Positions 13,361 to 31,718 of a stretch of 64,000 nt of DNA are shown here, in pieces. A program made the position numbers and the translations under genes. The notes beneath the pieces were generated by a model. The model had not been told where the DNA came from. It made no database searches and saw only the letters and a program-made list of their open reading frames with translations. The stretch comes from an uncultured Verrucomicrobiota bacterium (GTDB lineage Bacteria; Verrucomicrobiota; Verrucomicrobiia; Limisphaerales; JADLHS01): contig CAIKLQ010000501.1 of the NCBI GenBank assembly GCA_903828255.1, positions 9,491 to 73,490 on the forward strand, given 5' to 3'. Positions within the stretch are counted from its first letter, which is position 1; every line of letters starts with the position of its first letter.

Positions 13361-14791
13361 CTAGTTCTGGAGGAGGTCGCGTAGTGATATTTCTTGCCAG
13401 TAGGAGCTTTGCCGACGTTGCGCGAGGCTGTTGTCAGCCCCTTGATTGCCGCGATTCAGGTTGAACTCGAAAGACTTGTCTACCGTTTTGCCGTTCCATT
13501 GGATTCGCACGATGCCTTTCACGCTGCCTTTGGTGTCGAACATGTTTAGCCACACCGATACATCTTCGAGACGGGCATGCTTGACCTCGACGTATTCCCA
13601 ACTTGCCGTCCAGTCGCCACTTCGTCCCTGTGGCCCGGCGTGGCGGATGTCGCGGAAATACACGGCATCCGTGGCCTCCGCGCGACGCCAGAACACTTCA
13701 GGTGCGCCGGGACGGGCGGCGACATAGAGATCAACGTCGGCTGTGGATGCCGCGTGTGCCGAGGCCTCCCAAAGAGCGGCAATCCCGATGCGTCCGGCTG
13801 GCGTCCTGGGAATCTCCGTGACGGCTTTCGCAATCGCGGCGGATTCCACCTTTGGGCTGGATACGGGTGGGGCAATGGCTACCGGGGCATTTGTCGGAAC
13901 TGCGACCGGGCGGTTGGGTGTTACGGCGGGCGGGACATTGATGCGCGATTCCACTCTGGGTGCATTCTCACGCCGGAAGATCGGCGGGGGGCGCATGACC
14001 AAACCCTGGTCGTTCGGGTCCAGTGTCGCAGTCAAAACGGGCGATGCCTCACCTTGCGCGGCCCGCTCGAACACGCGGGCAATGTCACTGCCGAACGTGC
14101 TCAACGTAGCGCCCTGCTCCGCGATAAACACCGACCAAAACCGCGTGACAGCGCGGCGGTGCATTTCCCCGACGGCCCAATCGTCTGAAGGCGTCAACCA
14201 GTGAACGGTTGTGTTCTGCAACTGCCCTTTGCGCTCCTTGGAGCCGAACAAAGACTCGGTGACGGATGCGGCGACCATGCCGTCGCTCGGCGTCAGCCCT
14301 TTCTCCATGTCAAAAGCAGCCTCGCGCTCATTAGATGCGAGATAGAGCGGTGATCCGATCACAATCACCGCAAGTTTTTCCTGGCCCTGACGAGCGCGGA
14401 CGACTCCATCGAGAAGTTGAGGCAGGCGGAGTTGCGTCGCCTGACGCAAATCTGCGGCCGTGGGCGTTTTCAGGAATTGGACCAAGCCAACGAACTTGCC
14501 GGCATATTCACGGCTGTTGGCGCGGGCGCGTGCCGTTCCTTCTGGCACAACCACCAATGCGAGGCGATTGCCTTGTGGCGCGGCAAGGAACTCAACTCGA
14601 TCACCCGGTTGGGCACGATTCAAGAGCAAGTCCATGCTCTGCTTGAAAGCGTCCTGGCTTTGATTCGACGAAAGTCCACCACAGATTGCGACCACGTAGT
14701 GGCGTGGCGCTTCCCCAGCGGGCGCGGCGCTCACAATCAAGGCGGTCGCAAATGTGATGACGGCAACGAGGATGGATTGGATGGTTTTCAT
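13361..14791 (-). CDS. Secreted protein: signal peptide, vWA-like alpha/beta domain, Pro/Ala linker, YfaP/DUF2135-like beta domain
   Basis: Start ATG 14791 overlaps the upstream TGA; signal peptide 'MKTIQSILVAVITFATALIVSAA'; linker 'PPAVTPNRPVAVPTNAPVAIAPP'; 'ALW...ADVDLYV..RPG'. Confidence 0.6.
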   Translation of the reverse strand: MKTIQSILVAVITFATALIVSAAPAGEAPRHYVVAICGGLSSNQSQDAFKQSMDLLLNRAQPGDRVEFLAAPQGNRLALVVVPEGTARARANSREYAGKFVGLVQFLKTPTAADLRQATQLRLPQLLDGVVRARQGQEKLAVIVIGSPLYLASNEREAAFDMEKGLTPSDGMVAASVTESLFGSKERKGQLQNTTVHWLTPSDDWAVGEMHRRAVTRFWSVFIAEQGATLSTFGSDIARVFERAAQGEASPVLTATLDPNDQGLVMRPPPIFRRENAPRVESRINVPPAVTPNRPVAVPTNAPVAIAPPVSSPKVESAAIAKAVTEIPRTPAGRIGIAALWEASAHAASTADVDLYVAARPGAPEVFWRRAEATDAVYFRDIRHAGPQGRSGDWTASWEYVEVKHARLEDVSVWLNMFDTKGSVKGIVRIQWNGKTVDKSFEFNLNRGNQGADNSLAQRRQSSYWQEISLRDLLQN

Positions 14792-16011
14792 GATTTGGGT
14801 TTGTTGTTCTTGTCGTCGAGGAATTGGTTTAGAAGTTCGCTGGTCTTGCGAGAACGCTCGGACTCCGCTGCGGCGAGGCGATACAACTCCACGGCGCGGG
14901 TGACGAGCTGGTTGCGCTTGGCTTCGATAATTACCAGTTTGCCTTGGAACAGGCCGACCTTCTCGCGTTCCTCGCGAAGCCCGAAAGCCTGCTTGTCCAA
15001 ATCCGTTTTGACGCGCGTCCACATGGGGTTTTCGGCACGCACGGACGGGCGATGGCGTTCCACAATTTGGGTCGCCGTAAGCCACATTGCTCCGGCGACG
15101 AGGTTGCCAACCAAAAGTTGTAGCGCGAACGTCCACCAAGAGTTTGAACCGTGCGACACCGCGTCAAGCGATGCCATTGACGCGAGCGGGTCGGCTGTGA
15201 TGCGCGAGTAGGTCTGCGCAAAGATCGGGACGGCCGCTGCCAGTGACACCATTGCCAGCGTGAATACGACGAACGCGTAACGGCGGCGGGCAAAGTCCGT
15301 ATCTAACCAGTTTGCCAGCGACTTGATCAGGAAAGCCCCACCGACAATTACCGACAGGTTGAACATCGCGGCTCTCCAGTAGTGTCCGCGAAAAGCCTCA
15401 ATGCCGCTCTCCAGCAGAGTGACTGCGGCACTGTTGATGTCCACCCACAGCAAGAGAAAGCTGAACACCACAATTCCCACCAACTGTGCCGCGTTCCACC
15501 AAGTCCACGGTTGTTGCGATTGGCGCTCGACTTCGATGTAGCGGTCGGTGCGTGTGAGGCGCGCAGTAAGTTCGCGCAGATGGGCTTCCCCACTGCGGAC
15601 ATTCGCCGCCATGTCCTGCAATACCTGACGGAGAACCCCCTCCATATCCGCCCAAATGGAGTTGAACTTCGCAATATGGTGATCGCGCACTACGGCTTCA
15701 CCGCTGCCGTTCCACGCGGCGGAGAGGATCACGTCTTTGTCGGGGTGGATTTCCGGGCGATCCTTCTTCGTTACCCAATAGTCCATCCGGCTGCTGATGA
15801 ACGGGCCAGGGGCTGCATCAACTTCCGCGTGGTGCGCACCGTTGCCGTTGTGCCCCGCGCCATTCACCGAGACCGGCCCTGACGAAACAGGAGTCGGTTT
15901 CGCTGCCCCGTTCCCATTGTGGCCGTTCGCGCCATTGTGCGCCGGGAGCGAGATGTTTTGCTCGGGCAATGCGCCGTCCTGCTTCGGGGTGATGTTGCGG
16001 TTTGTCTTCAT
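14788..16011 (-). CDS. Multi-pass membrane protein flanked by coiled coils (407 aa)
   Basis: About four hydrophobic segments. Start ATG 16011 has AAGGA and a sigma-54-like promoter directly upstream. N-terminal GHNGNGA repeats. Confidence 0.7.
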   Translation of the reverse strand: MKTNRNITPKQDGALPEQNISLPAHNGANGHNGNGAAKPTPVSSGPVSVNGAGHNGNGAHHAEVDAAPGPFISSRMDYWVTKKDRPEIHPDKDVILSAAWNGSGEAVVRDHHIAKFNSIWADMEGVLRQVLQDMAANVRSGEAHLRELTARLTRTDRYIEVERQSQQPWTWWNAAQLVGIVVFSFLLLWVDINSAAVTLLESGIEAFRGHYWRAAMFNLSVIVGGAFLIKSLANWLDTDFARRRYAFVVFTLAMVSLAAAVPIFAQTYSRITADPLASMASLDAVSHGSNSWWTFALQLLVGNLVAGAMWLTATQIVERHRPSVRAENPMWTRVKTDLDKQAFGLREEREKVGLFQGKLVIIEAKRNQLVTRAVELYRLAAAESERSRKTSELLNQFLDDKNNKPKS

Positions 16012-16024
16012 GCTTTCCTTTACA

Positions 16025-16041
16025 AGCGGCGGTGTTGCCAA
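16025..16041 (-). promoter_or_regulatory. Sigma-54-type promoter with variant -12
   Basis: TTGGCAACACCGCCGCT, GG-N10-GC; the -12 C is 15 nt from ATG 16011. Confidence 0.7.
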
Positions 16042-16159
16042 TGTTTCGTCGCCCGGAATTGGATTGATACGTTGGAGTTTTTGACCCGCCGCAGGCGCAT
16101 TGGATATTTCCGGTTGCAGATTCGCTACCAGGAGGTGTTTTTGCCGCACTTCGTCTCCG

Positions 16160-17815
16160 CTACTTGTCGAGTTCTTCAAGCAGCGTCACGCTATTAGCGA
16201 ACGCGCTGCCGAGGGTCTTGTAGCGTTCAGCCAGGCCACGGCGGTCTTCCGTGTTGATGCGATAATCGCGGTGCGCCGCCTGCAAATGCTCCGCCGTCAT
16301 TGCGTCCACGGTGTCGTCGAAGAAGTTTTGCTTGGCGCGAGTCACCATTTCCTCAAGGTCCGCTCCACTGTAGAACTCGCTTTCCGCCGCAATTTTTGAA
16401 ATCACGGGACGGATTGCATCCTCCGCCATGACAGGTTTAGGCCGACGGCCGATCAAACCAAGGTGCATTTCCAAAATCTGTTGCCGGGCCTGCTGATTGG
16501 GATAAAGAAACGGGATGACGTAACTGAACCTCCCGGGACGCAGGAACGCGGGGTCAAGGTCGCCCGGCACATTGGTCGTGCCGACGATGATGGACTTGCG
16601 GTTGGCATCGCCGAGCCATTCCAGCATTTGAGCGAATACCCTGCTCGTCTCCTGTGAGGCGCTGTCGCCCTGGCCCGACTTCCTGCTGCCGAACCGATCA
16701 ATCTCGTCCACAAACACAATGGCAGGCGATGCCTGTTCTACCATGTGAATCGCATCTCTCACTCGCTGGCCGGACTCGCCGAGATATTTTGAAAACAGGT
16801 TCTCCGTCTTGAGGTTGATAAACGGTAGATTCGTTTCTCTGGCGAGGGCCTTGGCAAAAAGTGTCTTGCCTGTGCCCGGCGGGCCAAAAATGAGAATTCC
16901 GCGCGGTAGCGGAAGTGCGGCTCGCACAGCTCGTTCCCGCTGTTGAAGCGCCCGCACAAGATTGCGCTGAACCATCCGCTTGACGCCGTTGTAGCCACCC
17001 ACGTCGTCGAAGCCGACCGATGGGTCTTCGATTTCTAGTATGTCGGAACGGCGGATGAAGTCGGCTTTGAACTTCTTCACCGTTTCCAAATCAACCCCAT
17101 CGCGCCTGCCAGCCTTGGCGGCGCGATAGGCTTTGTAGATGACGACATCCGTCTGGTGAAGCGTGAGGCCGGCGGTGGCGAGAGTGAGCGCGTTCAGTTC
17201 CTGCTCCGCAAGGCGAACTCCTGATTTCCGCGCGAACGCGCAGATGATTTCCCTTCTTTCGGCATCGCTGGCCAGTTCGGGCCGGGCCAGAACGCTCATC
17301 CCCAATGTCACTTCATCCATCGCGAGCAAGGGGCGGGATGTCACCCAGCACACCACGGATTTCTTGGCGAGAATGTCGCCGTCCTGTGCCCAAGAGCGCA
17401 CCGCGTTCAAGGCGTCCAAGTTCTTGACCGAGTTGCCCTCCGGCTGATCGAGGCCGGATAGAATCAATGCGGTCTTCTCGCGCTTCAACTGGCTGTCCAT
17501 GAATTTGAGCGCGCCTTGCAGGTCTTTTAGTTCGTTTTCAAGGCCAGCGCCGTAGTTGGAATCCACCGGAGCAGTCACAGCGGCAAAGTTGTCACGCTTC
17601 GTTTCCCACTTCTCCAACCCTTTCCAAGGATGGAAACGATAGACATGCTGTCCGAAAAGGCTGACGAGGTATTTCTCCAATTGTCGATTACGGTGAAAGT
17701 CAACGGTCTGCGCGGTCACGACTGCAGAGGCGCTGCAAAGGACTTCCATCATGGCGTTCTCCAGCCAACGGATGTCGAATGTCGGGGTGTTGGATTCGGG
17801 TTGTGACAGTGCCAT
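16160..17815 (-). CDS. Ycf46-like AAA+ ATPase (inactive N-terminal AAA-like half plus active C-terminal AAA)
   Basis: 'FDDVGG', 'PRGILIFGPPGTGKT', 'VFVDEID', 'LDPAFLRPGRF', 'YSGADLE'; start ATG 17815 chosen from the promoter position. Confidence 0.85.
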   Translation of the reverse strand: MALSQPESNTPTFDIRWLENAMMEVLCSASAVVTAQTVDFHRNRQLEKYLVSLFGQHVYRFHPWKGLEKWETKRDNFAAVTAPVDSNYGAGLENELKDLQGALKFMDSQLKREKTALILSGLDQPEGNSVKNLDALNAVRSWAQDGDILAKKSVVCWVTSRPLLAMDEVTLGMSVLARPELASDAERREIICAFARKSGVRLAEQELNALTLATAGLTLHQTDVVIYKAYRAAKAGRRDGVDLETVKKFKADFIRRSDILEIEDPSVGFDDVGGYNGVKRMVQRNLVRALQQRERAVRAALPLPRGILIFGPPGTGKTLFAKALARETNLPFINLKTENLFSKYLGESGQRVRDAIHMVEQASPAIVFVDEIDRFGSRKSGQGDSASQETSRVFAQMLEWLGDANRKSIIVGTTNVPGDLDPAFLRPGRFSYVIPFLYPNQQARQQILEMHLGLIGRRPKPVMAEDAIRPVISKIAAESEFYSGADLEEMVTRAKQNFFDDTVDAMTAEHLQAAHRDYRINTEDRRGLAERYKTLGSAFANSVTLLEELDK

Positions 17816-17828
17816 ACAAAAGGAAGGG

Positions 17829-17845
17829 AGCGGCGGAAGTGCCAA
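17829..17845 (-). promoter_or_regulatory. Sigma-54-type promoter with variant -12
   Basis: TTGGCACTTCCGCCGCT; the -12 C is 15 nt from ATG 17815. Confidence 0.7.
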
Positions 17846-18032
17846 TTCGCATCGCGCAATCAGTTGGATTCTCAGAAACGGTGATTCTCGTGTTGTGCCA
17901 GTGAGCTATGACACAAACTTAAAGACGTAGTTATTTATAGTCGCTTCAAACGTGAGCCACGTTCACGTTTGGCAGCCGCTGAGGGGCTAAAAGGTCTTGG
18001 GGTCGAAGGGGGTTCAATTCCAGAAAAACGGA

Positions 18033-19607
18033 TCAGAGATTGCGCGGTGGTGGGGGAAACGTCTCGTCCCAAGCTGCTACGACTTCGAAAGTTCTCAGGT
18101 TAATGTAATATGCTCTGGCCCGCTCCACACATACTGTTGATAAAGCAATGATTCTGATCCACTGCCCGCTAACACTAGCGACGCTGCACCGACTAACTGA
18201 ACAAAACTCATTGGAGGCGAACACCTCCGGGGCAACCAACCAAGTTTGAGGTGCAAGCAGAATGCCTTCTTTTCCCGACTCAAGCGTGGCCAAAAGGATT
18301 CCGGCATCTTCCGAAATAATTATCAGGGATTGGTATTCAGGAGCGACTATCCAATCCCCATCCCAGCCCATCCAGCCACATTTCGTTTCCCCGGATCGAG
18401 GCAGCGACTCGGCAATGAAACGGGTCTGCGTGGAGCGCGGACTTGCGGACATGTCGAACGGTAACATGCGTTGGATTTGTCCAGTCGAGTCGAGTAGCGC
18501 CCACTTGCCATCACGTTTCGCCCATGCCGTGCGCAATCGAACGTGTGGAAGGGTCAATATTTCATAGTCCGGCGGCAGCATCCATTTCCCACCAAAATCC
18601 ATCCAACCCCAGCGCTCGTTTTCTTGAACAAGCACCAGCCCTAGCTCCTCATTGAGATCTGCGATCCGGTCAAACTTGGGAGGCATCACCCACTGTCCAT
18701 CCCGGTTGAGAATCCCCGTTGGCCCAGCGTCACAACTTGCTATGCAGAGGCTTCCGCCCTGCTTGAACCAACCAGGAGGAAAACTGCCATTGATTTCGGG
18801 GCAGGCGACATGTGTGCCGTCGCGCCTGACAATGTGCCATTGTCCCCGTCCGCCAAACGTTGTTCCAACGCGAATACGACTGTTCGGGGTGTCAATTGCT
18901 TCGTCGTATGCACGCCCTTCTTTGGCCCAGGCAATTTCGCCTGCGCGCCGAGGAGCCTCCCAAGATGCAAACCTTGGGGTGATTGCCCATGATCCGTCAG
19001 GTCGAAGAAGCCCCCACGAGCCCTTCCGGCATGCCCAGAAGAGAGCGGCTTCATTGTCGAACGGGGTAATTTCTTCGAATGTCGGCGTCACAACCCATTT
19101 TCCTGTCGCATCAATCAATCCCCAATCAAGTTTCAAGCAAGCCGGTGCGAGTTTAGAAGTGGGATGGAATCGCTTTACCTCAGTGAACTGTCGCGGAATA
19201 CGCCATTCACCTTCCGGGTTAATAAAACCCACCCTAAAGCTGCTGCCGTCTTCCGCGCGCCGAGCTGCGGCCAACCCGGAAACCGGATCAAAGACGTCCA
19301 ACCAGTCAAAGGATGGGGCGATGACCCACTGACCGGCGCGGTTGACGGCGCCGAACACCCTGCCTGTCTCCGGCATGTCCGTTTTTCCGTCCTCTTCGCC
19401 CTCGGTTGTATTGAGGCTGGGAAAAATCGTCTCCGCTATAGCCAGTCCACTGGCGTCATCGAAGTCCGACAAGTGTAAGAATTGGGGTTCAATTACGATA
19501 CGTCCGCAACCATCTATCGCTCCCCATTTACCAGCACGAACAATTGGAAAACGCAAACCGCTCAAGTCCTCATTACAGACTTTGTTCGAGCTGATTTCCG
19601 TGTGCAT
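18033..19607 (-). CDS. WG-repeat (KWG-type) protein
   Basis: Repeats 'GKWGAIDGCGRIVIEPQF', 'WGLIDATGKWVVTPTF', 'WGWMDFGGKWMLPPDY'; no signal peptide evident. Confidence 0.85.
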   Translation of the reverse strand: MHTEISSNKVCNEDLSGLRFPIVRAGKWGAIDGCGRIVIEPQFLHLSDFDDASGLAIAETIFPSLNTTEGEEDGKTDMPETGRVFGAVNRAGQWVIAPSFDWLDVFDPVSGLAAARRAEDGSSFRVGFINPEGEWRIPRQFTEVKRFHPTSKLAPACLKLDWGLIDATGKWVVTPTFEEITPFDNEAALFWACRKGSWGLLRPDGSWAITPRFASWEAPRRAGEIAWAKEGRAYDEAIDTPNSRIRVGTTFGGRGQWHIVRRDGTHVACPEINGSFPPGWFKQGGSLCIASCDAGPTGILNRDGQWVMPPKFDRIADLNEELGLVLVQENERWGWMDFGGKWMLPPDYEILTLPHVRLRTAWAKRDGKWALLDSTGQIQRMLPFDMSASPRSTQTRFIAESLPRSGETKCGWMGWDGDWIVAPEYQSLIIISEDAGILLATLESGKEGILLAPQTWLVAPEVFASNEFCSVSRCSVASVSGQWIRIIALSTVCVERARAYYINLRTFEVVAAWDETFPPPPRNL

Positions 19608-19654
19608 AGCGTTGATGTTGAGCAGGCAGTTTGCGCTGTCAATCGAATACCCGT

Positions 19655-21337
19655 TTAACCAGCTCGTAAACTCTTGTTTCCGCTTTTCCGTTTCCGCTCG
19701 CGCGCCGAAGGAATCTCAAGCTCTTTGCGGTAGTTCTCAATGGTCTTTCGCGACAGGATCAGGTCTTCCTCCTTTTCAATGGCCTTGGCGAGTTGCTCAT
19801 CGCTCATCGGATGCGCGCGGTCTTCATGGCGGATGAAATTCATGATCCATTCCTTCACGATGTCCGGCAGGTAACGCACTTCCTGACCATCGGTGTTGCT
19901 GGCTTTTTCTCCGGGTGAACACAGCAGTTTGAGCGGCTTTACCTCGCCGTTCGGCAGGCGAACAAACTTGTCCTGCACGGCGCGACTGACAGTTGATTCG
20001 GAAAGCGCCTGCCCACCGAATTCCTCAAGCTCAAGTTCCGCCCCTGCGTCCGCTGGGCTAAAACATTGAAGGTCAAAACCCTTGCCTGATTTCAAAAACG
20101 GTTTTTGCCGATGGGCTAGGACGGTTGCCACGCGTAGAAGGGTCGTGCGGCGGTCCTCGCAGGCCCGGAGGAATTGCATCACATGCTCCTTACATTCCTC
20201 CTTTTGCTCCCGTTTGATCGTAAGCCCGACGATTTTGTCCTTTGCTTTCGCGCCCGCATCGCCCGGCAGATTCTTTGCCTCACGGAGTGATTCGAGTTGT
20301 TCCTTGAGGTCGTCAATATCCACAAGCAGCGTCTTGCTGATGGAGAGGTGCTCGTATCGGCTGCCGCAAAGTTCCACAGTGAAGCTCCCACCCGGCGACA
20401 GCGAAATGGCAATATCAGGACCGACTCCATCAGGTGATTGAAGGTGGTGATTCTGCCACGGCGTTACTTCCTCCTCGTGCTGGTCCACCGGATGCGGCAC
20501 GGCTTTCAACAGCCGTTGGAGTGTTTGGCGCACTTGCACTTCGTCAATCCCCAGGCGACCTGCAACCGTTTTCGATAACTCCAACGCCACGCACTCGCAG
20601 TCGGTTTGGGACATCACGGAGCTTGCCCCGGCGGTGATTTCCCGCAACTCGCCCGCTTCGACAAGCCCGGCCATGCAGGAGGCGATGCGCCATTCTGGCG
20701 TTTCGTGGCGAGCGTGGCGTTCGAGAAGCAGCCGTCTGGCATCCCAGGCATTGCGGGCAGCGACACCGACCGGTTCGCAGTGCTGGATCAGAGCGAGAAC
20801 TGCGGACAAATCCGCAACTGCCACGCCGCAGGCTTTCGCACATTCATCCATCTCCTCGGTGAAAAATCCTCGGCTGTCCAGCGCCTCCACGATGAACGCC
20901 GCGATGCGATGCCGATGTTCTGCCAAGCGGCTCTCTTTCAATTGAGCCATGATTCGCTCACGGAAATTCGCCGGCGCGGTGAGGTAATCTTCCGGCGTCC
21001 AGTCTCCGTCACTTGATACTCGCGATGTCGCGCCTTCGCTCGCCTGACCAATTTCGCCAATGAAGTCCTTGGCCTCATTCTCGCGGTCGGAAGCGGCCGA
21101 ATTTTCAGGCGAGGATTCCTCGGAAGCATCCTCGTTCGTCTCTGCATTGGCCTGCGCGTCCTGCTGCTCACCCTGCGTTGACGGAACAGCATCCACGAGG
21201 TTCTGTTCCTCCAGTGTTTCGGCCGCCGCGTCAACCTCTCGCTGCGTCATCTCCAACACCTTTAGACCCAGCACGAGTTTCTGGTTTAGGGCGAGCGTTT
21301 GCCGCTGCTTTTGGGTGTGGCGAAATCCGAGCGTCAT
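19655..21337 (-). CDS. rpoN: Divergent RNA polymerase sigma-54 factor
   Basis: Region I 'QKQRQTLALNQKLVLGLKVLEM'; 'IVEALDSRGF', 'IQHCEPVGVAARN', 'RRTTLLRVA..L..RQK.F'; HTH 'SESTVSRAVQDK'; 'ED...PMSDEQL'; RpoN box 'SRKTIENYRKELEIP'. An in-frame upstream ATG at 21442 is possible. Confidence 0.9.
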   Translation of the reverse strand: MTLGFRHTQKQRQTLALNQKLVLGLKVLEMTQREVDAAAETLEEQNLVDAVPSTQGEQQDAQANAETNEDASEESSPENSAASDRENEAKDFIGEIGQASEGATSRVSSDGDWTPEDYLTAPANFRERIMAQLKESRLAEHRHRIAAFIVEALDSRGFFTEEMDECAKACGVAVADLSAVLALIQHCEPVGVAARNAWDARRLLLERHARHETPEWRIASCMAGLVEAGELREITAGASSVMSQTDCECVALELSKTVAGRLGIDEVQVRQTLQRLLKAVPHPVDQHEEEVTPWQNHHLQSPDGVGPDIAISLSPGGSFTVELCGSRYEHLSISKTLLVDIDDLKEQLESLREAKNLPGDAGAKAKDKIVGLTIKREQKEECKEHVMQFLRACEDRRTTLLRVATVLAHRQKPFLKSGKGFDLQCFSPADAGAELELEEFGGQALSESTVSRAVQDKFVRLPNGEVKPLKLLCSPGEKASNTDGQEVRYLPDIVKEWIMNFIRHEDRAHPMSDEQLAKAIEKEEDLILSRKTIENYRKELEIPSARERKRKSGNKSLRAG

Positions 21338-21382
21338 ATTCGTTGGTCTTGGTTGTCGCGTTTTGGTTTCTGATTTTAAGAA

Positions 21383-24821: not shown

Positions 24822-24909
24822 TTGCGCAAACAACTGAACTCCGGTTCGAAATCGTATCCAAGAGTCTGAACGAGGAACGCCAATGAAATCGGCGCGAAGA
24901 ATGTGAGAT

Positions 24910-25027: not shown

Positions 25028-25037
25028 GTGGACACTT

Positions 25038-25054
25038 AGCGAGAGCGATGCCAA
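25038..25054 (-). promoter_or_regulatory. Sigma-54-type promoter with variant -12
   Basis: TTGGCATCGCTCTCGCT. Confidence 0.75.
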
Positions 25055-25116
25055 CCCGATAATTTGTTCGAGAGCGCCCTTCTGCGTCCATTTCGCGCAC
25101 CAAATCTCTCGACCTC

Positions 25117-25133
25117 TGCTACGCCCGGTAGCA
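25117..25133. promoter_or_regulatory. Candidate UAS TGCTAC-N5-GTAGCA between divergent sigma-54 promoters
   Basis: Perfect inverted repeat, about -98 from the leftward TSS and about -126 from the rightward TSS. Confidence 0.6.
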
Positions 25134-25223
25134 ACCGTGTAATCGGCGCTATCCACCAAGCCCCATCAAGCAGACGAGAGTTGCTTCGCGCATGCCCAAG
25201 CCAAACCCACGCGCCTTCAACAA

Positions 25224-25240
25224 GTGGCACAAGCGCCGCT
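25224..25240 (+). promoter_or_regulatory. Sigma-54-type promoter with variant -12 for the rightward operon
   Basis: GTGGCACAAGCGCCGCT; the -12 C is 17 nt from ATG 25256. Confidence 0.75.
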
Positions 25241-25255
25241 TGAATTGATTCGTGC

Positions 25256-26143
25256 ATGAACACTCCAACCCGATCAGCCGAACCAACGATTCGTTGCATG
25301 GACTGCGGTCGCAAGAACGATGCGAGCGAAAGCGTCTGCGAGTTTTGTGGTGCGACACTTCGTTCGAGCCAATCATCGTTCGCCGAACCTCCCGGCGGCA
25401 ACAGTGCTGGAGTGCGCCCCAGCCTGCCTCCGCCGCTTTTCTCGGCTAACGCCGTATCGCCAGTCTTCCCGTTCTCCGGGCCGTTGACCCGCTCCTCATC
25501 GGAGCTGGAGTCCATCTCCGCTAAAAACGAGGACCAGCGGGTTACGGGCGCGGAACTGAGCGGGCGCGTGATTGCCGCCGAGCCGGTCGTTCATGAGCAG
25601 CCCGATTTCGACTGGTGCAAGCTCGTGACCCGCCTCCTCTGGTTTCTGTTGCTGGTCGTTTCGCCCTTCGTTCTGCTGCGCACGGTGCTCGTCCACTTGG
25701 GGGCATTGCCGGTTGTCTTCGCCGTCGTGGGATTCCTGTTCCTGCTCCGGTTTTTCAGTCCCACGAATATTATTTCGCTACTTCATCTTCACATGCTTTT
25801 GAATCCGCTTCGTCGTAACGAGGCCGAGCAAGTTCCCGTCCGCTACTTTCGCGTCCGTGATACTCAGGAGCGGGAGTGGGTTGTGCGGATGAAGGGACAG
25901 GTCAACGGTGGCAACATTGCGCCCGATGACTTGATTTCGGCCTGGGGCAGATGGCGCAGCGGCACGCTTTCCCTGACGCGCGCTTACAATCACCGAACGC
26001 AGAGCTACGCCTCCATCAGAAGTTCGCAATCGTGGATCATGCTCACGGTAACGGTGGGGGTGATCCTGTTCCTCGGCATATACTTCTACGATCCGCTCCA
26101 CGCGATGTGGCAGATGATGCACCGGATGGGAGGTTCACAGTGA
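25256..26143 (+). CDS. Zinc-ribbon membrane protein with an OB-like beta domain
   Basis: 'CMDCG...CEFCG'; about three hydrophobic segments; beta-rich 'VRYFRVRD...VVRMKG..GG.IAPDD.I.AWG'. Confidence 0.7.
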   Translation: MNTPTRSAEPTIRCMDCGRKNDASESVCEFCGATLRSSQSSFAEPPGGNSAGVRPSLPPPLFSANAVSPVFPFSGPLTRSSSELESISAKNEDQRVTGAELSGRVIAAEPVVHEQPDFDWCKLVTRLLWFLLLVVSPFVLLRTVLVHLGALPVVFAVVGFLFLLRFFSPTNIISLLHLHMLLNPLRRNEAEQVPVRYFRVRDTQEREWVVRMKGQVNGGNIAPDDLISAWGRWRSGTLSLTRAYNHRTQSYASIRSSQSWIMLTVTVGVILFLGIYFYDPLHAMWQMMHRMGGSQ

Positions 26144-28713
26144 CGTTACCCGAAAAAATCAGTGGATTGGAAGGTGGTCATTTGGACGGCACGGGACTGC
26201 CCCAATTCTCCATGGAGTATTTCTCCGGTTGGGGGTTCGTGCGCGTGCAAAGCCTCGCGCGCTTTTGGGATACGCCTGAGTCAGCGAGTCAGACATTGGA
26301 ATCGGCGCAGGAGGCGTTCTATTCCGGCCTGCACGCGGCGCAATTACCGTGGGGTCTGCTGGTCCTCGGAGAGCCAACCCGCGTTTCGATCCATTTCGTG
26401 CTTCCCGGTGCGGGCAGTCGCTTGGCGTCCTGGAGCGGTGCGATTAAAGGTGCGCTTCCCGGATGCGAACTCGCCGACGATGTATCCAACCAGCAAATCT
26501 GTTCGCAGTTGGAGAAAATGCCGTTTGCCGTTGCCGTCACGGGGAATCCGTTTGTGGGAAATGTAGATGAAGGCTCGCAGCGAGTTGTTCGATCAGAAGG
26601 TGGGCGATTGGAGCGCGTGCTCTGCTCGTTGCGCGGTCGTGCATTCGCGTATCTGGTAGTCGCTCGCCCAGTGAAGCTGCCAGAAGTGGAGCGGACGCTG
26701 AACAACCTCACCATTGAGGAGCGTGAAATCCGGTCGGCGTTCATGCGGAAAGGCTCATCCGAAGACGGCAACAATCCCCGCGCGCAGCACTACCTGGAAC
26801 TGCTTCGGGTTTCGCGCGAAAATCATCTCGCCGGGCGGAATATCGGCATGTGGGATACCGGGGTTTATCTTCACACAGCGGATCAGAGCACTCTCATCGA
26901 GGGGAGTCGGGCGCTTCATGGGGTTCTGACGGGAGCACGAAACCAGCCTCAGCCCATCCGAGTGAATGTCTGCGAACGTCCCGCCCAAGGTCGGTTTGAG
27001 CCGGTTTTCACCCGCTTGAATTCCAAGGAAGTCATGGTTTTGACATGCCTGCCGAAAGAGGAATTGCCGGGCTATGAAATTCGCCAGCGGGTGTCTTTTG
27101 GTGTTTCGCCAGTGCTGCATGGAGCGGGAGACGTGGTGGATGTCGGCGTCGTTCTCAAGGACAGCCAGCGGACAGGCAATTGGTTTTCCGTTCCGGTGAA
27201 TGATTGGGCGCGGCACGCTCTGATCGCGGGTGTTTCCGGTTCGGGCAAGACGAACACCTGCAAATCCATCCTTTTTCAGTGCTGGCACGACCATTCCGTT
27301 CCATGGCTGGTGCTCGAACCCTCAATCAAGTCGGAGTATCGCACGCTGCTCAAGTCGAAGATTGGCGCGGATGTCCGCGTCTTCACACTTGGCGATGAAA
27401 CAGCCGTGCCATTCCGCCTGAACCCGTTGGAAGTCATGGCGGGCATCCATGTGCAAACGCACATTGATGCGTTGCTCGCGCTTTTCAACTCGGCCTTCGC
27501 CTGGGTTTCGCCAATGCCGGAAGTTCTTAACCTCGCCGTTCACCGACTCTACACAAACTTCGGCTGGGACTTAGCCACAGGCAGTCGTCACAAGACGGAC
27601 GGTTCAGAGCAGCCGACTTTGCGGGATTTGTTGGCGGTCATTCCGGGGTTGGTCGGCGAACTCGGCTACAACGACGACATTTCCTCGACGATTCGCGCAG
27701 GCTTGCTCACGCGACTTTCCAGTCTGTCGCTCGGTGCGAAAGGGCTGATGTTGAATTCCGGCCATTCCATTCCTTTCGACTACCTGCTCGCCAAGCCGAC
27801 GATTCTTGAAATGGCTACCATCGGCAACGAGGAGGAGAAAGCATTCCTGCTTGGGGCGGTTTTAGTGCGGCTCGCGCAATACCGCCAGCGCCAAGGAACG
27901 ACGGATGGGAAATTACGTCACCTCCTGCTGATTGAAGAAGCTCATCGGCTGTTGTCCGCCGTGCCTTCACAGGTCGCGTCCGAAGTCGCCAATCCGCGCG
28001 GCAAGGCGGTAGAAACCTTTTGCCATCTGTTGGCGGAGTTGCGGGCGTTTGGGCAAGGCATTGTCGTCGCGGAACAAATCCCTGCGAAACTCGCGCCGGA
28101 TGTTGTCAAGAACACGACGGTGAAGATTGTGCATCGGCTCGGTGCGAATGATGACCGCCGCCTGCTCGGTGGAACGATGAATCTCGATCCCTCCCAAGAG
28201 AAGTTCCTCTCCACGCTGCGTAATGGTCAGGCCGTAGCTTACACTGAAGGGCGTGAGACGGCCTTCCATATTGGAGTTCCCCACTTCGAGCATGGGCAGA
28301 ACCCGCTTCCCGTTCCGACGAAGGAAGAAATTGTTGTTCACATGCGCTCACAGTTGCCAGAGATGCCGCCGATCACACATGCGCTACGCAAAAAGCACAC
28401 AACTGCTACTGCTGATAACATTCCATCTTGTGCCGGCTGTCTACCCAGCTCTTGCACCATGCGGGGCGTAGTGCTGCAAAAGTTGGCGAAGTCTGGTTGG
28501 GAAGCGGAATTCGAGGGATCAATTGAACGCGGCTGGAAGGGAATTTGGGAGTTTGGCATGTCCGCCGCTAAAACCCTCCCTGTGACGAATAAACCCAACT
28601 GCGCCTACTGTGTCCTGATGAACATCGCCGCATTGAACCGCTGGGATGATGAAACCGTGGAACGAATGCGGCGCAATCTCGCGGCGCTCCGAGACAACAT
28701 GGCAATCTCCTGA
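26140..28713 (+). CDS. HerA/DUF87-like ATPase with a C-terminal Cys cluster
   Basis: GTG 26140 overlaps TGA and has a GGAGG RBS; 'RHALIAGVSGSGKTNT', 'LLIEEAHRLL', 'EQIPAKLAPDVVKNTTVKIVHRL'; 'CAGC...C...CAYC'. Confidence 0.85.
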   Translation: MTLPEKISGLEGGHLDGTGLPQFSMEYFSGWGFVRVQSLARFWDTPESASQTLESAQEAFYSGLHAAQLPWGLLVLGEPTRVSIHFVLPGAGSRLASWSGAIKGALPGCELADDVSNQQICSQLEKMPFAVAVTGNPFVGNVDEGSQRVVRSEGGRLERVLCSLRGRAFAYLVVARPVKLPEVERTLNNLTIEEREIRSAFMRKGSSEDGNNPRAQHYLELLRVSRENHLAGRNIGMWDTGVYLHTADQSTLIEGSRALHGVLTGARNQPQPIRVNVCERPAQGRFEPVFTRLNSKEVMVLTCLPKEELPGYEIRQRVSFGVSPVLHGAGDVVDVGVVLKDSQRTGNWFSVPVNDWARHALIAGVSGSGKTNTCKSILFQCWHDHSVPWLVLEPSIKSEYRTLLKSKIGADVRVFTLGDETAVPFRLNPLEVMAGIHVQTHIDALLALFNSAFAWVSPMPEVLNLAVHRLYTNFGWDLATGSRHKTDGSEQPTLRDLLAVIPGLVGELGYNDDISSTIRAGLLTRLSSLSLGAKGLMLNSGHSIPFDYLLAKPTILEMATIGNEEEKAFLLGAVLVRLAQYRQRQGTTDGKLRHLLLIEEAHRLLSAVPSQVASEVANPRGKAVETFCHLLAELRAFGQGIVVAEQIPAKLAPDVVKNTTVKIVHRLGANDDRRLLGGTMNLDPSQEKFLSTLRNGQAVAYTEGRETAFHIGVPHFEHGQNPLPVPTKEEIVVHMRSQLPEMPPITHALRKKHTTATADNIPSCAGCLPSSCTMRGVVLQKLAKSGWEAEFEGSIERGWKGIWEFGMSAAKTLPVTNKPNCAYCVLMNIAALNRWDDETVERMRRNLAALRDNMAIS

Positions 28714-28726
28714 ACCCGAAAAGCAC

Positions 28727-29350
28727 ATGTCCTCGAAATCACCAGAGCGGATGAAACTTCAGAAGCCGAGCGAGACGCCTGCGCTCCGCACCTATTTCGC
28801 CGACATGGACAAGGCCGCTGTCGGCGCAATCGGAGAACGGTTCAAGGAGTTTATCCCCGCGGATCGTCTGAAGAATCTGCCAGACATGCCGAGCAAGTTT
28901 GAAAGCTCACAGGACCTTCGTAAGACGTATCGGGCGGAGACGGGTCACAAAGCGCCTGATGGCCTTACCGGTTTCACCAGGCCGGATTCGCCGGCGCACA
29001 TATCCGTCAAGCATCTGGCGGGCGTTCCCGAAACGGTCTTGCACGAGCGGCTTCATCAAATGGCTTCGCCGGACGCCAAGCGTCTTCTCGGTAAACACTA
29101 CGAAGGCGTCACGCAGGATCTGGCGATTGAGGTTCTGGGGCGAGAACCGCAGGAGGGGGAATTGACGGGCTACCCGGTCGAGCGCGAGCGCGCCCATTCT
29201 ATGAGGAAACTTGTTGGGTCTGATGCCGTTTGCCGGGCCTATTTCCAAGGCGATGCAAAACCACTGAAGGCGGCGCTTGATCGAATGGCCTCGGAACGTC
29301 CGCTTGCGGGCATGCAGGACAAAATTAAGGAACTTCCGCCGCTAGAGTAA
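28727..29350 (+). CDS. Zincin-like metallopeptidase
   Basis: 'LHERLHQ' (HExxH) followed by 'YEGVTQ' and a downstream 'GYP'. Confidence 0.7.
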   Translation: MSSKSPERMKLQKPSETPALRTYFADMDKAAVGAIGERFKEFIPADRLKNLPDMPSKFESSQDLRKTYRAETGHKAPDGLTGFTRPDSPAHISVKHLAGVPETVLHERLHQMASPDAKRLLGKHYEGVTQDLAIEVLGREPQEGELTGYPVERERAHSMRKLVGSDAVCRAYFQGDAKPLKAALDRMASERPLAGMQDKIKELPPLE

Positions 29351-29369
29351 CAGACAAAACCAAAAAACT

Positions 29370-30272
29370 ATGGGTGAAGGAATCGCAAAACTTGTTGGCG
29401 TCCTGTTCTTGATCATCGCGGCGATCTACGCGGTGGTTCTCATCATAGCTGCCGCAGTGGTGATTGCCGCCGTGCTTGCACCTCCGGTCGGAGCGGGCTA
29501 TTGGCTACGAAAGCTGTTCACCCAACGATACCAGCTTGGGCCTCGCAAAACAGTAAAGTGCGTTCTGGTCGGCCTTGCGATGGCAGCCCTCCCGTTGATC
29601 CCCTTGGGCGTAGCGCCCGCGCCTGTTTCAGATTGGACCGTAGCAACCGCCGTCTGGATGTCCATCACGGGCTGCCTCCTTGGCGTGGGACTTTACCTGG
29701 CCTTGAGCGTTTACCACGACGTGTTCTGGCCGCATCGCAGGACGATCATTGTCGCGACGAAGGAAAGTCTAGCACTGAGGTATCAACTCTGGCGACAGGA
29801 CTTCCAGTTGAACCGAGTCAGCGCACGAGTTCGCAGGGTCGAACAAAGGGAAAATGCTCGCCTTGCGGAACTCCGCACACTTGAGCAGAGCGTGTCGGAA
29901 GTAATTCGGTCCACTGATCCGGCATTTCTCAGCGCGGAACGCGTGCGCTGGGAGACTGAATACAGCAACCTTGGTGCGTCAGCGCTTCGTAGCGAGTTGG
30001 ACAAAGTTCAGGGCGAGATAAACCAAACGGATAGGTCGTCCGCCTACTATTCGAGCTTAATGGTGCAATCGGGCATTCTGCGCATGTTGGTTCAACGTGG
30101 TGCATTTGCCTCTGGAAGCGGTGCAACTTTCGAGGCTGATCTTGCAAAGAAATCTGACCTCGAATCGACAACCGGTGGGCTGCGGGAGCGGCTCAATGCG
30201 CTCCGAAGTCAGGTTGTTGACGCCTATGCGTCACTGCGCCAACTCCGCCGACAACGCGTGTTCGTCCAATAA
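29370..30272 (+). CDS. Membrane protein with a C-terminal coiled coil
   Basis: Three to four N-terminal hydrophobic segments; heptad-rich C-terminus. Confidence 0.7.
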   Translation: MGEGIAKLVGVLFLIIAAIYAVVLIIAAAVVIAAVLAPPVGAGYWLRKLFTQRYQLGPRKTVKCVLVGLAMAALPLIPLGVAPAPVSDWTVATAVWMSITGCLLGVGLYLALSVYHDVFWPHRRTIIVATKESLALRYQLWRQDFQLNRVSARVRRVEQRENARLAELRTLEQSVSEVIRSTDPAFLSAERVRWETEYSNLGASALRSELDKVQGEINQTDRSSAYYSSLMVQSGILRMLVQRGAFASGSGATFEADLAKKSDLESTTGGLRERLNALRSQVVDAYASLRQLRRQRVFVQ

Positions 30273-30285
30273 CCCTTCAAGACCT

Positions 30286-30846
30286 ATGTCACTAACCGCT
30301 GATTACGATACTGAGATTCGAGTTCCCCAATTTCAACTTGGCGAAGCGCTTGGGGCTGTTGCCGGCCTTGCCGCATCCGAGATTCTGCGAAGACTTCTCA
30401 CCGGCAGATCGGGCACGCAAAGCGTCGCTGCCAGCACGCCGCAGCCGGAATTGACCTCCGCGCTCGCAAACATTCGTAGCCTTCCCTCCATGAACATCAT
30501 GCGGCAGGCTCTTGAAACAGTCGCTCGCGAGCGGAACGGCTCGGTGGCGGAAGACTACGAAGACTGCAATGGTAAGCGAACTCCCTGCCTCATCGGGTTG
30601 AAGGCTCCGCAGTTCCCGCGAGGAGTGGGAGTGGACATCTCGGCTGATGGCAAAGTCGTGTTCCGTTATGACGAGGTAGGCGGTGTTGCGCCTGCCGCCA
30701 AGTCGCTTTGCGACGATGTTTGCCGCGTGTATGCGACCATAGCGGTCCTGCACGCTCAAAAGAAACTCGGCTACCGGGTCAGCGCACGAGACATGTCGGA
30801 TGCCGCTGGCCGGAAGCAGGTGGTTGTTTCCGCAATGCGCGACTAA
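30286..30846 (+). CDS. DUF1257/Ycf35-like protein
   Basis: 'MS...YDTEI', 'QALE', 'GVDI..DG.V.F.YD', 'RVYA..AV...KKLGYRV' pattern; DUF2997-like gene nearby. Confidence 0.5.
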   Translation: MSLTADYDTEIRVPQFQLGEALGAVAGLAASEILRRLLTGRSGTQSVAASTPQPELTSALANIRSLPSMNIMRQALETVARERNGSVAEDYEDCNGKRTPCLIGLKAPQFPRGVGVDISADGKVVFRYDEVGGVAPAAKSLCDDVCRVYATIAVLHAQKKLGYRVSARDMSDAAGRKQVVVSAMRD

Positions 30847-30851
30847 AAGCC

Positions 30852-31487
30852 ATGCATACCAGAGGAAGCCAACTTCTGCGTGTCCATCGGTTTCTGGCTG
30901 AAACCGAAGTTGAAGGACCGGGCCGGAGGGCCGCCCTGTGGGTTCAAGGCTGCCCGATTAGGTGTCCAGGTTGTGCCAATGGCGCAACTTGGACGTTCGA
31001 TGGAGGCTACCAGACGACAGTGGAGAGTCTGTTCGATCAAATTCACGCGCAACGTGGCATCGAAGGTGTCACTTTCATCGGTGGCGAACCGTTCTCCCAT
31101 GCGGGGGCGCTGGCAGCGCTTGGCCGACTCTGCCGGGAGCATGCACTATCAGTAGTCACATTCACAGGTTACGAGTATGCGCGACTTATCGCAGCGCGCC
31201 GACCGGACTGGAACGCCTTGCTGGAAGTAACGGACCTGTTGTTGGCTGGACCTTTCGTCGCAGCCCAGAAGGACTTTTCCCGTCCGTGGGTTGGATCGCG
31301 CAATCAGGAATTCGTTTTTCTCACTGACCGTTACCGCCACTTGCAGGCAAAAGGCGTCGCGTTGAAAAACGGATTGGAAATCCTCATCGCTCCAAGCGGA
31401 AGCATTCGGCTGAACGGTCTTGCTCCCGTCGAGGACATATCTGCGATGCGCCGGGAATTGGCATCGCTCGGACTGAACACAAATTGA
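30852..31487 (+). CDS. NrdG-like radical SAM protein
   Basis: 'EGPGRRAALWVQGCPIRCPGC' (CxxxCxxC), 'GVTFIGGEP', 'FTGY', 'GSRNQ'; no nrdD in the window. Confidence 0.85.
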   Translation: MHTRGSQLLRVHRFLAETEVEGPGRRAALWVQGCPIRCPGCANGATWTFDGGYQTTVESLFDQIHAQRGIEGVTFIGGEPFSHAGALAALGRLCREHALSVVTFTGYEYARLIAARRPDWNALLEVTDLLLAGPFVAAQKDFSRPWVGSRNQEFVFLTDRYRHLQAKGVALKNGLEILIAPSGSIRLNGLAPVEDISAMRRELASLGLNTN

Positions 31488-31499
31488 GGCAACAACAAC

Positions 31500-31718
31500 A
31501 TGAAGAAGACGATTCAGACAAGGATTGATGCGAACGGGGACGTTCACTTGGATTTTGCAGGGTTCGTAGGACGCGAATGCCAAGTCGAGGAGGATCGCCT
31601 TCGTCGCGAATTAGCGACGTTGGGCTTGAATGTTGGCGTCACGCTATCGCCAAAAATGTCCGGCCGTCAATCCGCTGCGATTCAACCGTCCAGTTCAATG
31701 CAGAAGAATGTTCAGTAG
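31500..31718 (+). CDS. DUF2997-like small protein
   Basis: 'I...ID.NGDV..DFAGFVGREC......L...LG' pattern. Confidence 0.7.
   Translation: MKKTIQTRIDANGDVHLDFAGFVGRECQVEEDRLRRELATLGLNVGVTLSPKMSGRQSAAIQPSSSMQKNVQ

Follow-up and report, generated by a model that had tools for sequence, protein, structure and literature searches.

Specialised second copies of the gene for sigma-54 are well known, such as the multiple rpoN genes in Rhodobacter sphaeroides and the plasmid-borne rpoN2 in Ralstonia, and RtcR-rtcBA and PspF-psp are examples of specialised sigma-54 circuits. Here we describe a gene block at about 13395-31655 of a 64-kb stretch of DNA from an uncultured Verrucomicrobiota bacterium (the window, i.e. 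the whole stretch analysed: positions 9491-73490 of contig C501 in the draft genome G000, which comprises 8.9 Mb in 1053 contigs and is 94% complete), which encodes its own sigma-54 (the island sigma-54) and carries a shared set of predicted variant sigma-54 promoters. As in the second-rpoN systems, a sigma-54 paralogue exists beside the housekeeping one, an AAA+ activator is encoded adjacent to it, and the promoters have the -24 GG/-12 GC spacing. The differences are that the sigma gene here is located on an 18-kb cassette behind its own type of promoter, that the -12 element is YCGCT, that the RpoN box and the GAFTGA loop are altered, and that the clade of the sigma factor is rare and far from ordinary RpoN. 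The altered promoter, the altered sigma factor and the altered activator loop together suggest that the circuit is insulated from the sigma-54 regulon of the host and, as the sigma gene lies behind its own promoter type, the circuit should amplify itself. The block is situated in a defence island; a housekeeping ABC-transporter operon immediately precedes this island, which extends from about window position 239 to the contig end. From its sequence, we tentatively lean towards a conflict system, directed against phages or competitors, that would be triggered by the activator, amplify itself and work at the cell envelope, and not towards a conjugation apparatus. No description of the cassette was found in the literature, and no paper that combines sigma-54 with anti-phage and defense island came up in a full-text search.

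The products of the block also resemble parts of several other described systems. As in Sir2-HerA and DUF4297-HerA, there is a HerA-clade ATPase with a candidate effector gene directly downstream, but no Sir2 or DUF4297 was found in the block by Pfam, the ATPase has an N-terminal domain of the NF033849 type and is coupled to a Zn-ribbon membrane protein, and the candidate effector is a HExxH protein. A second ATPase shares the P-loop/TraG-D_C core with the coupling proteins of type IV secretion systems (TrwB, VirD4 and DotL), while it shows no N-terminal transmembrane (TM) anchor by hydropathy and no relaxase, VirB4 or mating-pair genes are present among the scanned open reading frames (ORFs) of the block. 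The scans comprised Pfam on 19 block ORFs and NCBIfam, both for ORFs of at least 60 amino acids (aa), and membrane proteins were assigned by hydropathy. In this ORF set there is no WXG100 match that would point to a type VII secretion system, and no EssC, EccC or FtsK is among the 11 profile matches of the HerA-like family. The third ATPase is of the classical clade and scores on IetA/IteA models as the AAA component of IetAS/IteA does, but no IetS protease was found and the scores are below the cut-offs. Finally, DUF1257-like and DUF2997-like genes stand in one regulon with an AAA gene, as in the cluster of Ycf46-like AAA, DUF1257 (Ycf35) and DUF2997; here, however, the AAA gene is about 12 kb from the small genes with the promoter motif as the sole link, as had been noticed at first annotation, and a radical-SAM gene lies between the DUF1257-like and DUF2997-like genes. 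A cyanobacterial cluster with the order DUF2997-DUF1257(ycf35)-fed7 is mentioned in PMC4284462.

The regulatory features are as follows (all positions are those of the window).

8781-10589, plus strand: sigma-54 activator (bacterial enhancer-binding protein), outside the block (Sigma54_activat, E 7.4e-43)
17829-17844, minus strand: promoter site P1, TGGCAC-N5-CCGCT, 13 nt ahead of the AAA start codon
19655-21337, minus strand: island sigma-54, 560 aa (Sigma54_CBD, 1.5e-22; Sigma54_DBD, 5.8e-25; both over the cut-offs)
21381-21528, minus strand: promoter P2 (21513-21528) and leader with a mini-ORF of 4 codons (21443-21457) and a 48-nt block (~21381-21428)
24805-25053, minus strand: duplicated promoter and leader, with P3 (25038-25053), a mini-ORF (24971-24982) and the 48-nt block (~24908-24955)
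24805-24820, minus strand: weaker proximal site TGGAAC-N5-CCGCT, just ahead of the VirD4-like ORF (position weight matrix scan)
25225-25240, plus strand: promoter site P4, TGGCAC-N5-CCGCT, 15 nt ahead of the start of the Zn-ribbon membrane gene
28554-28569, plus strand: promoter site P5, TGGCAT-N5-CCGCT, within the 3'-terminal part of the HerA-like ORF

The regular expression TGGCA[CT]-N5,6-[CT][CT]GC[TA] has five matches in the 64-kb window, all of which fall within 17829-28569 and face a downstream ORF. These five sites, TGGCAY-N5-YCGCT, keep the GG-N10-GC (-24/-12) spacing and have YCGCT, not TTGCW, as the -12 element. Genome-wide, TGGCAY-N5-YCGCT occurs 27 times, five times in the block and 22 times on 22 separate contigs, while by our estimate about 17 matches per genome and about 0.02 in the stretch of the block are expected by chance. 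A position weight matrix made from the five sites gave one extra candidate (24805-24820) and none elsewhere in the 64 kb. The shared variant promoter set proposed in the initial annotation, here five sites and a weaker one, and the island-encoded sigma factor are borne out. Each operon of the block, that of sigma-54 too, has a predicted site in front of it. The distance from motif to start codon is 13 nt for the AAA gene, 15 nt for the Zn-ribbon gene and 43-276 nt for the others; with the motif ending so close to their starts, the messages of the AAA and Zn-ribbon genes would be nearly leaderless. Moreover, the sites are kept at the same positions in all four close metagenome relatives, which are 68-91% identical in protein, and P1 is conserved in L015 and L016. 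Two other patterns were tried and rejected: the canonical TGGCAC-N5-TTGC with at most one mismatch has three matches in the window against 6.2 expected and none at an operon start, and the bare pattern GG-N9-TGC occurs at chance level.

P2 and P3 are parts of one duplicated segment of about 170 bp, which lies upstream of both the sigma-54 and the VirD4-like genes. The duplicated leader contains a mini-ORF of 3-4 codons behind a strong ribosome-binding site, followed by a 48-nt block that is identical in the four copies compared (the two window copies, L013 and L014), while its flanks vary. No Rfam match at E<=1 was found for the leader RNA in a search over 13000-33000, and a stable riboswitch-like leader structure was rejected since the fold is less stable than shuffled sequences (z +1.18). 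We therefore suspect that the 48-nt block may be a site on the DNA for protein binding.

The genome has two Sigma54_DBD matches, the island copy with 91.2 bits and the housekeeping rpoN on contig C93 with 189.5 bits. On TIGR02395 the island sigma-54 scores 181.6 bits, below the cut-off of 277, and for region I the Sigma54_AID model reaches 17.4 bits (E 0.004; cut-off 23.8), with an N-terminus that is rich in L and Q by eye. The RpoN box reads SRKTIENYR, compared with ARRTVAKYR in the host protein. Its clade is rare: among 5.8 billion proteins there are 17 relatives at 48-100% identity, followed by ordinary RpoN at no more than 35%. Of 61 genomes compared, G000 and 60 related ones, G000 alone gave a match, a scan of 185,579 species genomes gave 10 loci that are all at most 34% identical and contain ordinary RpoN only, and a metagenome scan returned only four short close contigs. 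Scans of viral contigs with the island sigma-54 and with the DUF1257-like protein gave no match. The activator, as read from its translation, has a divergent receiver-like N-terminus, the Walker A motif GESGSGKE, and GAFTDG where GAFTGA is expected; no helix-turn-helix of the Fis type was detected by Pfam. From the adjacency of the two genes, we infer that the activator acts together with the island sigma factor and is likely to be the trigger of the regulon.

The other genes of the block are listed below.

13361-14791, minus strand: signal-peptide protein with a predicted vWA-like fold (AlphaFold2 model and Foldseek)
14788-16179, minus strand: membrane protein, 3-4 TM helices by hydropathy and a coiled coil at the C-terminus, the 4TM protein of the text
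16160-17815, minus strand: classical AAA+ ATPase with an N-terminal domain of ~250 aa (PF00004, E 4e-34)
18033-19607, minus strand: WG-repeat protein, between sigma-54 and the AAA operon (WG_beta_rep, 2.6e-38)
21632-22048, minus strand: small protein (~138 aa) encoded after the VirD4-like ATPase, without match in the Pfam and NCBIfam scans
22110-24761, minus strand: soluble TrwB/VirD4-like ATPase, N-terminal half of ~430 aa without family (TrwB_AAD_bind, 3.7e-9; TraG-D_C, 4.4e-7)
25256-26143, plus strand: Zn-ribbon protein with 2 TM helices (Zn_Ribbon_1, E 0.0067, below cut-off; hydropathy)
26140-28713, plus strand: HerA-clade ATPase, open frame from 25951 (DUF87, 3.6e-6)
28727-29350, plus strand: HExxH...E protein of 207 aa, putative gluzincin-like effector (motif conservation)
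29370-30272, plus strand: membrane protein, 3 TM helices by hydropathy and a long coiled coil, no family match in the Pfam and NCBIfam scans
30286-30846, plus strand: DUF1257-like protein with a conserved N-terminal extension (hhalign, weak support)
30852-31487, plus strand: NrdG-like radical-SAM protein with CxxxCxxC (Fer4_12, 1.1e-30)
31500-31718, plus strand: DUF2997-like small protein, moderate support

This inventory contains all the ORFs named in the initial annotation, the three membrane proteins (14788-16179, 25256-26143 and 29370-30272, by hydropathy) included, and its assignments were largely right. The GTG at 26140 overlaps the stop codon of the Zn-ribbon gene, and thus the Zn-ribbon and HerA-like genes are probably translationally coupled. 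The WG-repeat gene is variable: L015 lacks it, and other runs have it with different repeat units.

Contigs of four sequencing runs (X5, X7, X13 and the RNA run X20) were aligned to 13361-32400 at >=85% likeness, where a stretch without cover in a single run is no evidence of absence. Over ~13395-31655, contigs of three other studies form a tiling path at 85-99% identity. Run X5 spans 13395-31655 with six contigs, whose breaks fall exactly on the two leader repeats; the tiling in run X7 (sludge) is similar, and in run X13 (wetland) most genes are covered and a contig continues to 32398. X5 and X7 depart from the window at the same places, 13395 and 31655, and continue there with identical foreign sequence; at the left end the compared stretch extends just 34 letters past 13395, and truly different flanks are visible at the right end only. 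The tiling and the common exit point in two runs suggest that 13395-31655 behaves as one unit with changeable right flanks, that is, as one horizontally transferable cassette, which almost exactly equals the range 13361-31718 marked out in the initial annotation. Furthermore, by a word index, 20 runs that belong to 13 studies contain parts of 17000-26500, and their labels include lake water, sludge, wastewater, bioreactor, wetland and volcano, among others (three runs and one RNA run were checked by contigs), which argues that the block is not a one-off assembly product. Genes that belong together should co-occur elsewhere, and the same gene order is indeed found in the contigs of three other studies and in short metagenome contigs: L016 has the order sigma-54, WG-repeat, AAA, with the AAA protein 96% identical, and in L015 sigma-54 is followed by an AAA fragment and then by the 4TM and vWA-like proteins (83-84% identical). 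Several relatives of the sigma-54, HExxH and DUF1257-like proteins share the longest-contig values 14118, 10042, 2508, 3973 and 3754, from which we infer that they sit on the same contigs. In the sediment metatranscriptome X20, short contigs lie on six block genes, a weak sign of transcription. One X7 contig joins 21382 to 24910 and skips 3527 bases (the VirD4-like gene and the small gene), while another X7 contig covers the skipped part; the join could stem from a deletion variant, or else from collapse of the leader repeat during assembly.

The HerA-like ATPase had been placed by DUF87 (3.6e-6), and its family profile (9 sequences; 11 matches) upholds this call, since archaeal HerA is the nearest at 1.7e-18 and VirB4 (4ag5) follows at 1.3e-4. 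The profile also matches the HerA proteins of anti-phage complexes (8xau, 8j4u, 8wiv and 9c1m), and the scores of NCBIfam VirB4 models are far below their cut-offs. A 'YueA-like ATPase with three HerA/FtsK domains' is mentioned in a footnote of PMC3482391. An assignment of the family to such a YueA-like ATPase of the type VII secretion kind was rejected, as the profile search gives HerA-type chains and no EssC or EccC. Its N-terminal domain is common to the NF033849 'serine-rich protein' family (1050-1250 aa), and there is almost no Ser-rich linker here. Relatives are present in 21 of 400 other genomes of the phylum.

In eight genomes of the phylum, a HerA-like locus of recurrent organization was found (L041-L048, in G102, G440, G385, G139, G400, G100, G194 and G337). 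Five of the loci have dynamin-like GTPases upstream and two an Hsp70-like protein, often with a small TM protein next; the HerA-like ATPase of ~1100 aa with a Ser/Thr/Gly-rich linker follows, and the gene downstream encodes a short protein with an Ala-rich N-terminus and, in six of the eight loci, a nuclease toxin domain of colicin-DNase/WHH, LHH or EndoNS_2 type. A SUKH immunity gene then follows in four of the eight. No description of this dynamin/Hsp70-small TM-HerA-like-toxin-SUKH locus was found in the literature. The window resembles these loci in having a HerA-like family member with the N-terminal domain, a small membrane protein upstream and a short effector-type gene downstream; by position, the Zn-ribbon TM protein corresponds to the small TM partner and the HExxH protein occupies the toxin slot. 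The window differs in that dynamin-like, Hsp70-like and SUKH proteins are not present and HExxH stands in place of the nuclease, while those loci hold no other cassette genes.

The HExxH protein has H106, E107, H110 and E126 invariant in all 21 aligned relatives, one of which is named from a Formivibrio metagenome-assembled genome (MAG). Its predicted model is all-alpha (pLDDT 67.3), Foldseek gave no match at E<=0.001, and the best VIA-align score is Z 5.7, where 32 of the 50 listed rows are zinc metallopeptidases by title. Thus the motif of the zincin call (an invariant HExxH with the downstream Glu) stood firm, while the fold evidence for it is weak; that the protein is gluzincin-like is plausible.

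The VirD4-like call likewise held, with matches to TrwB_AAD_bind (3.7e-9) and TraG-D_C (4.4e-7) and with TrwB (6.3e-10) and DotL (1.5e-8) as the nearest solved relatives of the family profile. By hydropathy this protein has no clear TM helix, including the N-terminal anchor. Relatives occur in 10 of 400 other genomes of the phylum, where short forms are accompanied by Replic_Relax and DnaG-type primase genes and long forms by serine recombinases; the family is normally a mobile-element ATPase. The best match on a Bradyrhizobium plasmid lies among CHAT, TPR and DUF4407 genes. Three more genes of this family are found in the same genome on contigs C854, C264 and C539 (28-36% identical), and that on C854 is a short form of ~430 aa. 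In Bacillus phage G (JN638751, L054, 6196-10338), gp155, annotated as VirB-like, adjoins gp156, which matches the VirD4-like protein at 27.7% identity. The third ATPase is assigned by its sequence to the classical AAA clade (Cdc48/PAN/FtsH), and its best solved relatives are VCP/Cdc48 (2e-75); it scores 1.5e-31 on PADLOC IetA, and the IetA/IteA scores are below the curated cut-offs. Of the Ycf46-like label in the initial annotation, membership of this clade is what the Pfam, NCBIfam, PADLOC and PHROGs scans bear out, in which no Ycf46 model came up. PHROGs 5156, 7035 and 8638 match the three ATPases of the window.

The secreted vWA-like protein of the initial annotation is supported by a signal peptide and a confident AlphaFold2 model (47 sequences, pLDDT 86.7), which consists of an alpha/beta domain at about residues 31-245, a disordered Pro-rich linker and a C-terminal beta-sandwich. 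Foldseek gave 13 matches at E<=0.001, headed by the vWA protein 4fx5 (2.3e-5), and a TerD-like match for the C-terminal part. No Pfam VWA match was obtained, and no DxSxS (the metal ion-dependent adhesion site, MIDAS) is seen in the window protein. The family comprises 766 representative clusters at E<=1e-3, and none of 47 members has a Pfam family. Proteins in which the 4TM and vWA-like parts are fused (P0112, P0162, P0212 and P0219) tie the two proteins together as partners in a widespread module of two genes. The pair is kept near the island sigma-54 in L015, and a paralogous pair is located on contig C616 of the same genome (1882-4950). The C616 paralogue and a plasmid homologue carry a separate C-terminal vWA domain with DASGS or DCSGS. 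Rows of the Atlas gave unnamed clusters, and one vWA row at 0.82 is a lead only.

The last module consists of the radical-SAM, DUF1257-like and DUF2997-like genes. The radical-SAM protein scores 92.5 bits on TIGR02491, below the cut-off of 126.1, and it has been correctly taken as NrdG-like without nrdD, since Fer4_12 matches at 1.1e-30 and NrdD (PF13597) has no match in the 94%-complete genome; one glycyl-radical enzyme is encoded elsewhere, on C644. Its C-terminal ~40 residues (31338-31487) resemble the DUF2997-like protein (34% over 44 aa, E 4e-5) without the Cys of the latter, and this DUF2997-like tail hints that both proteins may dock on the DUF1257-like protein. The two DUF calls fared differently. 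That of the DUF2997-like protein has moderate support: on PF11211 it reaches E 0.21 (11.9 bits against a cut-off of 24.1), while BLASTP gives 3e-6 over 28 aa with the canonical DUF2997 of the genome and tblastn 1.8e-5 with the member in L071. That of the DUF1257-like protein is weakly supported by hhalign of 20 relatives against 9 canonical members (E 0.027, probability 1.8%, 75 colinear columns); PF06868 gave no Pfam match up to E 10, and 21 relatives are without Pfam family. Pairwise BLASTP against canonical DUF1257 was tried too and is not significant. The statement that AAA, DUF1257 and DUF2997 genes are usually adjacent is not supported by the nine DUF1257 loci examined in the phylum, with flanks of ~1.5 kb, of which one shows it; in L067 (G125) the DUF1257 gene has AAA homologues on both sides. 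A canonical adjacent DUF1257 and DUF2997 pair is present in the genome itself (C92, 1197-1783), and no AAA gene is found on that 2.3-kb contig.

In the conflict-system reading, the activator, with its receiver-like domain, AAA+ domain and GAFTDG loop, would be switched on by a signal, most likely infection or envelope damage given the defence island, and would open the block promoters together with the island sigma factor. With the sigma gene under its own promoter type, expression would become self-amplifying and all-or-none, and the output would be a burst of three ring ATPases together with the envelope partners of each, and one further module. In the first module, the HerA-clade ATPase, coupled in translation with the Zn-ribbon membrane protein, would have the gluzincin-like HExxH protein encoded next to it as its effector, with the 3TM protein after that; the second would be the soluble TrwB-like ATPase; in the third, the Cdc48-like unfoldase would act with the 4TM protein and the periplasmic vWA-like protein; and the fourth would be made up of the radical-SAM, DUF1257-like and DUF2997-like proteins. 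Besides the regulon, the own sigma factor and the cassette nature of the block, the defence-island setting with a PRTase-CE gene behind the activator, the HerA-like family with HerA, including anti-phage HerA, as the nearest relative, the nuclease toxins in six and SUKH in four of the eight loci of its relatives, and the scores, below the cut-offs, of the AAA protein on IetA/IteA support this reading. Several observations weigh against it. Other cassette genes were found beside HerA-like relatives at none of 13 loci and beside TrwB-like relatives at none of 10, and the vWA-like protein in none of 400 other genomes of the phylum; since distant relatives never bring the other parts, co-occurrence is shown only among close copies of one element. 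The activator is outside the conserved block as delimited here, and the contig comparison began at 13361. The loci of TrwB-like relatives contain Replic_Relax, DnaG-type primase and serine recombinase, each at 4 of 10, and on the planctomycete plasmid pPla86_1 (CP036297, L075:10554-13293) the 4TM/vWA-like pair lies directly upstream of traG and near relaxase and MobC; there the vWA-like homologue is 29% identical over 202 aa, and a plasmid search with the 4TM protein gave no match. These two neighbourhoods suit a role in transfer as much as one in conflict. In addition, the gluzincin-like assignment comes from the motif and weak fold scores only, DNA carry-over is possible for the X20 contigs, and no PADLOC system model fits the block, on which only single-component models score.

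If the conflict-system reading is true, a module of a defence island brings its own sigma-54, a changed -12 element and positive feedback, which would amount to an orthogonal, activator-gated, all-or-none switch. This would be relevant to the question of how a cell silences immune functions that are costly or suicidal, and the switch could be reused as a genetic tool. Three uncharacterised families under one control (the 4TM/vWA-like pair, the HerA-like 'serine-rich' family and the soluble ATPases like coupling proteins) would offer an experimental handle, and the DUF1257/DUF2997-type proteins would gain a new partner, a radical-SAM enzyme with a DUF2997-like tail.

The initial annotation had inferred an atypical translocation machine for DNA or protein, or a cell-contact system, which we consider rather unlikely. 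In such a machine, the TrwB-like protein would be the coupling protein, the HerA-like protein the analogue of VirB4, and the membrane and periplasmic vWA-like proteins the channel, while the HExxH protein would be either the cargo or an enzyme that cuts the wall, and the sigma-54 switch would time the assembly. What favours this inference is the kinship with mobile elements: the VirD4-like family has TrwB and DotL as its closest relatives of solved structure, Replic_Relax, DnaG-type primase and serine recombinase genes accompany its members as given above, and the 4TM and vWA-like homologues lie upstream of traG on pPla86_1. The three membrane proteins and one signal-peptide protein of the block and the adjacent VirB-like and VirD4-like-match genes of phage G are in line with it, and so are the short toxins with Ala-rich N-termini and the SUKH genes that follow HerA-like relatives, as in exported polymorphic toxins (PMC3482391 and PMC3113570). 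However, the HerA-like protein is far nearer to HerA (1.7e-18) than to VirB4 (1.3e-4) with no EssC, EccC or FtsK chain listed, the TrwB-like protein shows no N-terminal TM anchor by hydropathy, and the setting is a defence island and not an integrative and conjugative element. Moreover, as was already noticed at first annotation, no relaxase, pilin or VirB core gene is evident: relaxase, VirB4, VirB6/8/9/10, pilin and WXG100 gave no match among the scanned ORFs, in a search that very divergent forms could escape. It is also conceivable, though unlikely, that the orthogonal sigma-54 switch drives one envelope-spanning apparatus, an inducible translocation or suicide machine outside the numbered secretion systems and the catalogued defence systems, in which the HerA motor on the Zn-ribbon membrane protein would export or activate the gluzincin-like effector, assisted by the ATPase like coupling proteins and by the Cdc48-like unfoldase with its 4TM/vWA-like module.

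Another explanation, which appears quite unlikely, is that the cassette is a regulatory or maintenance module of an integrative mobile element, the activation of which is timed by the sigma-54 circuit, and that it serves the replication, transfer or exclusion of the element by means of the TrwB-like protein, the degenerate DnaB-like gene and the radical-SAM protein. The right flanks that differ in other runs, the occurrence of block parts in 13 studies, the relative of the HExxH protein from a Formivibrio MAG and the presence of the TrwB-like family in elements bearing recombinase or relaxase fit this explanation, as does the DnaB-C-like ORF (31734-32375) that is adjacent in one run. Yet the block and its direct neighbourhood showed no sign of an integrase, recombinase, relaxase or replication initiator, nor of a tRNA-type boundary (tRNAs were outside the scan), and most of its genes have no known role in the biology of such elements. 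An envelope-stress or remodelling regulon similar to Psp and unrelated to conflict, in which the activator would respond to damaged membranes and the envelope would be mended or reshaped by the ATPases together with the membrane proteins, is improbable. The activator does score on PspF-type models, below their cut-offs, the block is rich in membrane or periplasmic proteins with an unfoldase-type AAA, and HerA-like relatives pair with dynamin-like GTPases; nevertheless, the block is rare, patchy and mobile in its distribution, it is set in a defence island, and the HerA relatives carry toxin and immunity genes. Lastly, it is highly improbable that the motif is a chance or repeat artefact among unrelated island neighbours, for although two of the five sites belong to one ~170-bp duplication and the 22 scattered matches compare with ~17 expected, counting the duplicate once still leaves four independent sites in 10.7 kb against ~0.02 expected, all correctly oriented at 13-276 nt from start codons and conserved in relatives of 68-91% protein identity, and they adjoin the sigma-54 gene in a block that is syntenic in other studies.

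The genes around the cassette are as follows. Beyond its right end lies one further ORF.

31734-32375, plus strand: DnaB C-terminal-domain-like ORF without Walker A (by eye), beyond the block

This ORF adjoins the cassette in X13 and not in X5 or X7, and it has a weak paralogue on C800. To the left, four large co-directional ORFs with which the island begins, just upstream of the activator (239-8255, plus strand; 1033, 439, 257 and 938 aa) have no match in Pfam, NCBIfam, PADLOC or PHROGs. Directly after the activator is a gene for a protein of 914 aa (10611-13355, plus strand), which has a PRTase-CE domain in its C-terminal half and an N-terminal part of 480 aa without family, and which matches PADLOC PRTase_III-A. 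The PRTase-CE domain is mentioned in PMC13712802 as known from retron type III-A effectors. To the right, at 34444-63530 and on C501 beyond the window (L026), the island encodes a DruE-like helicase with an MZB domain (1738 aa), DpdE-like and DrmMI-like proteins and a HATPase_c_3 protein, and further along a sacsin/TmtA-like protein of 2499 aa, a DrmD-like protein, AAA_13, and Metallophos with an SMC-like protein. Further genes there are those for DUF6361 with PLD and a helicase, DUF2779, Mrr, WYL and PIN.

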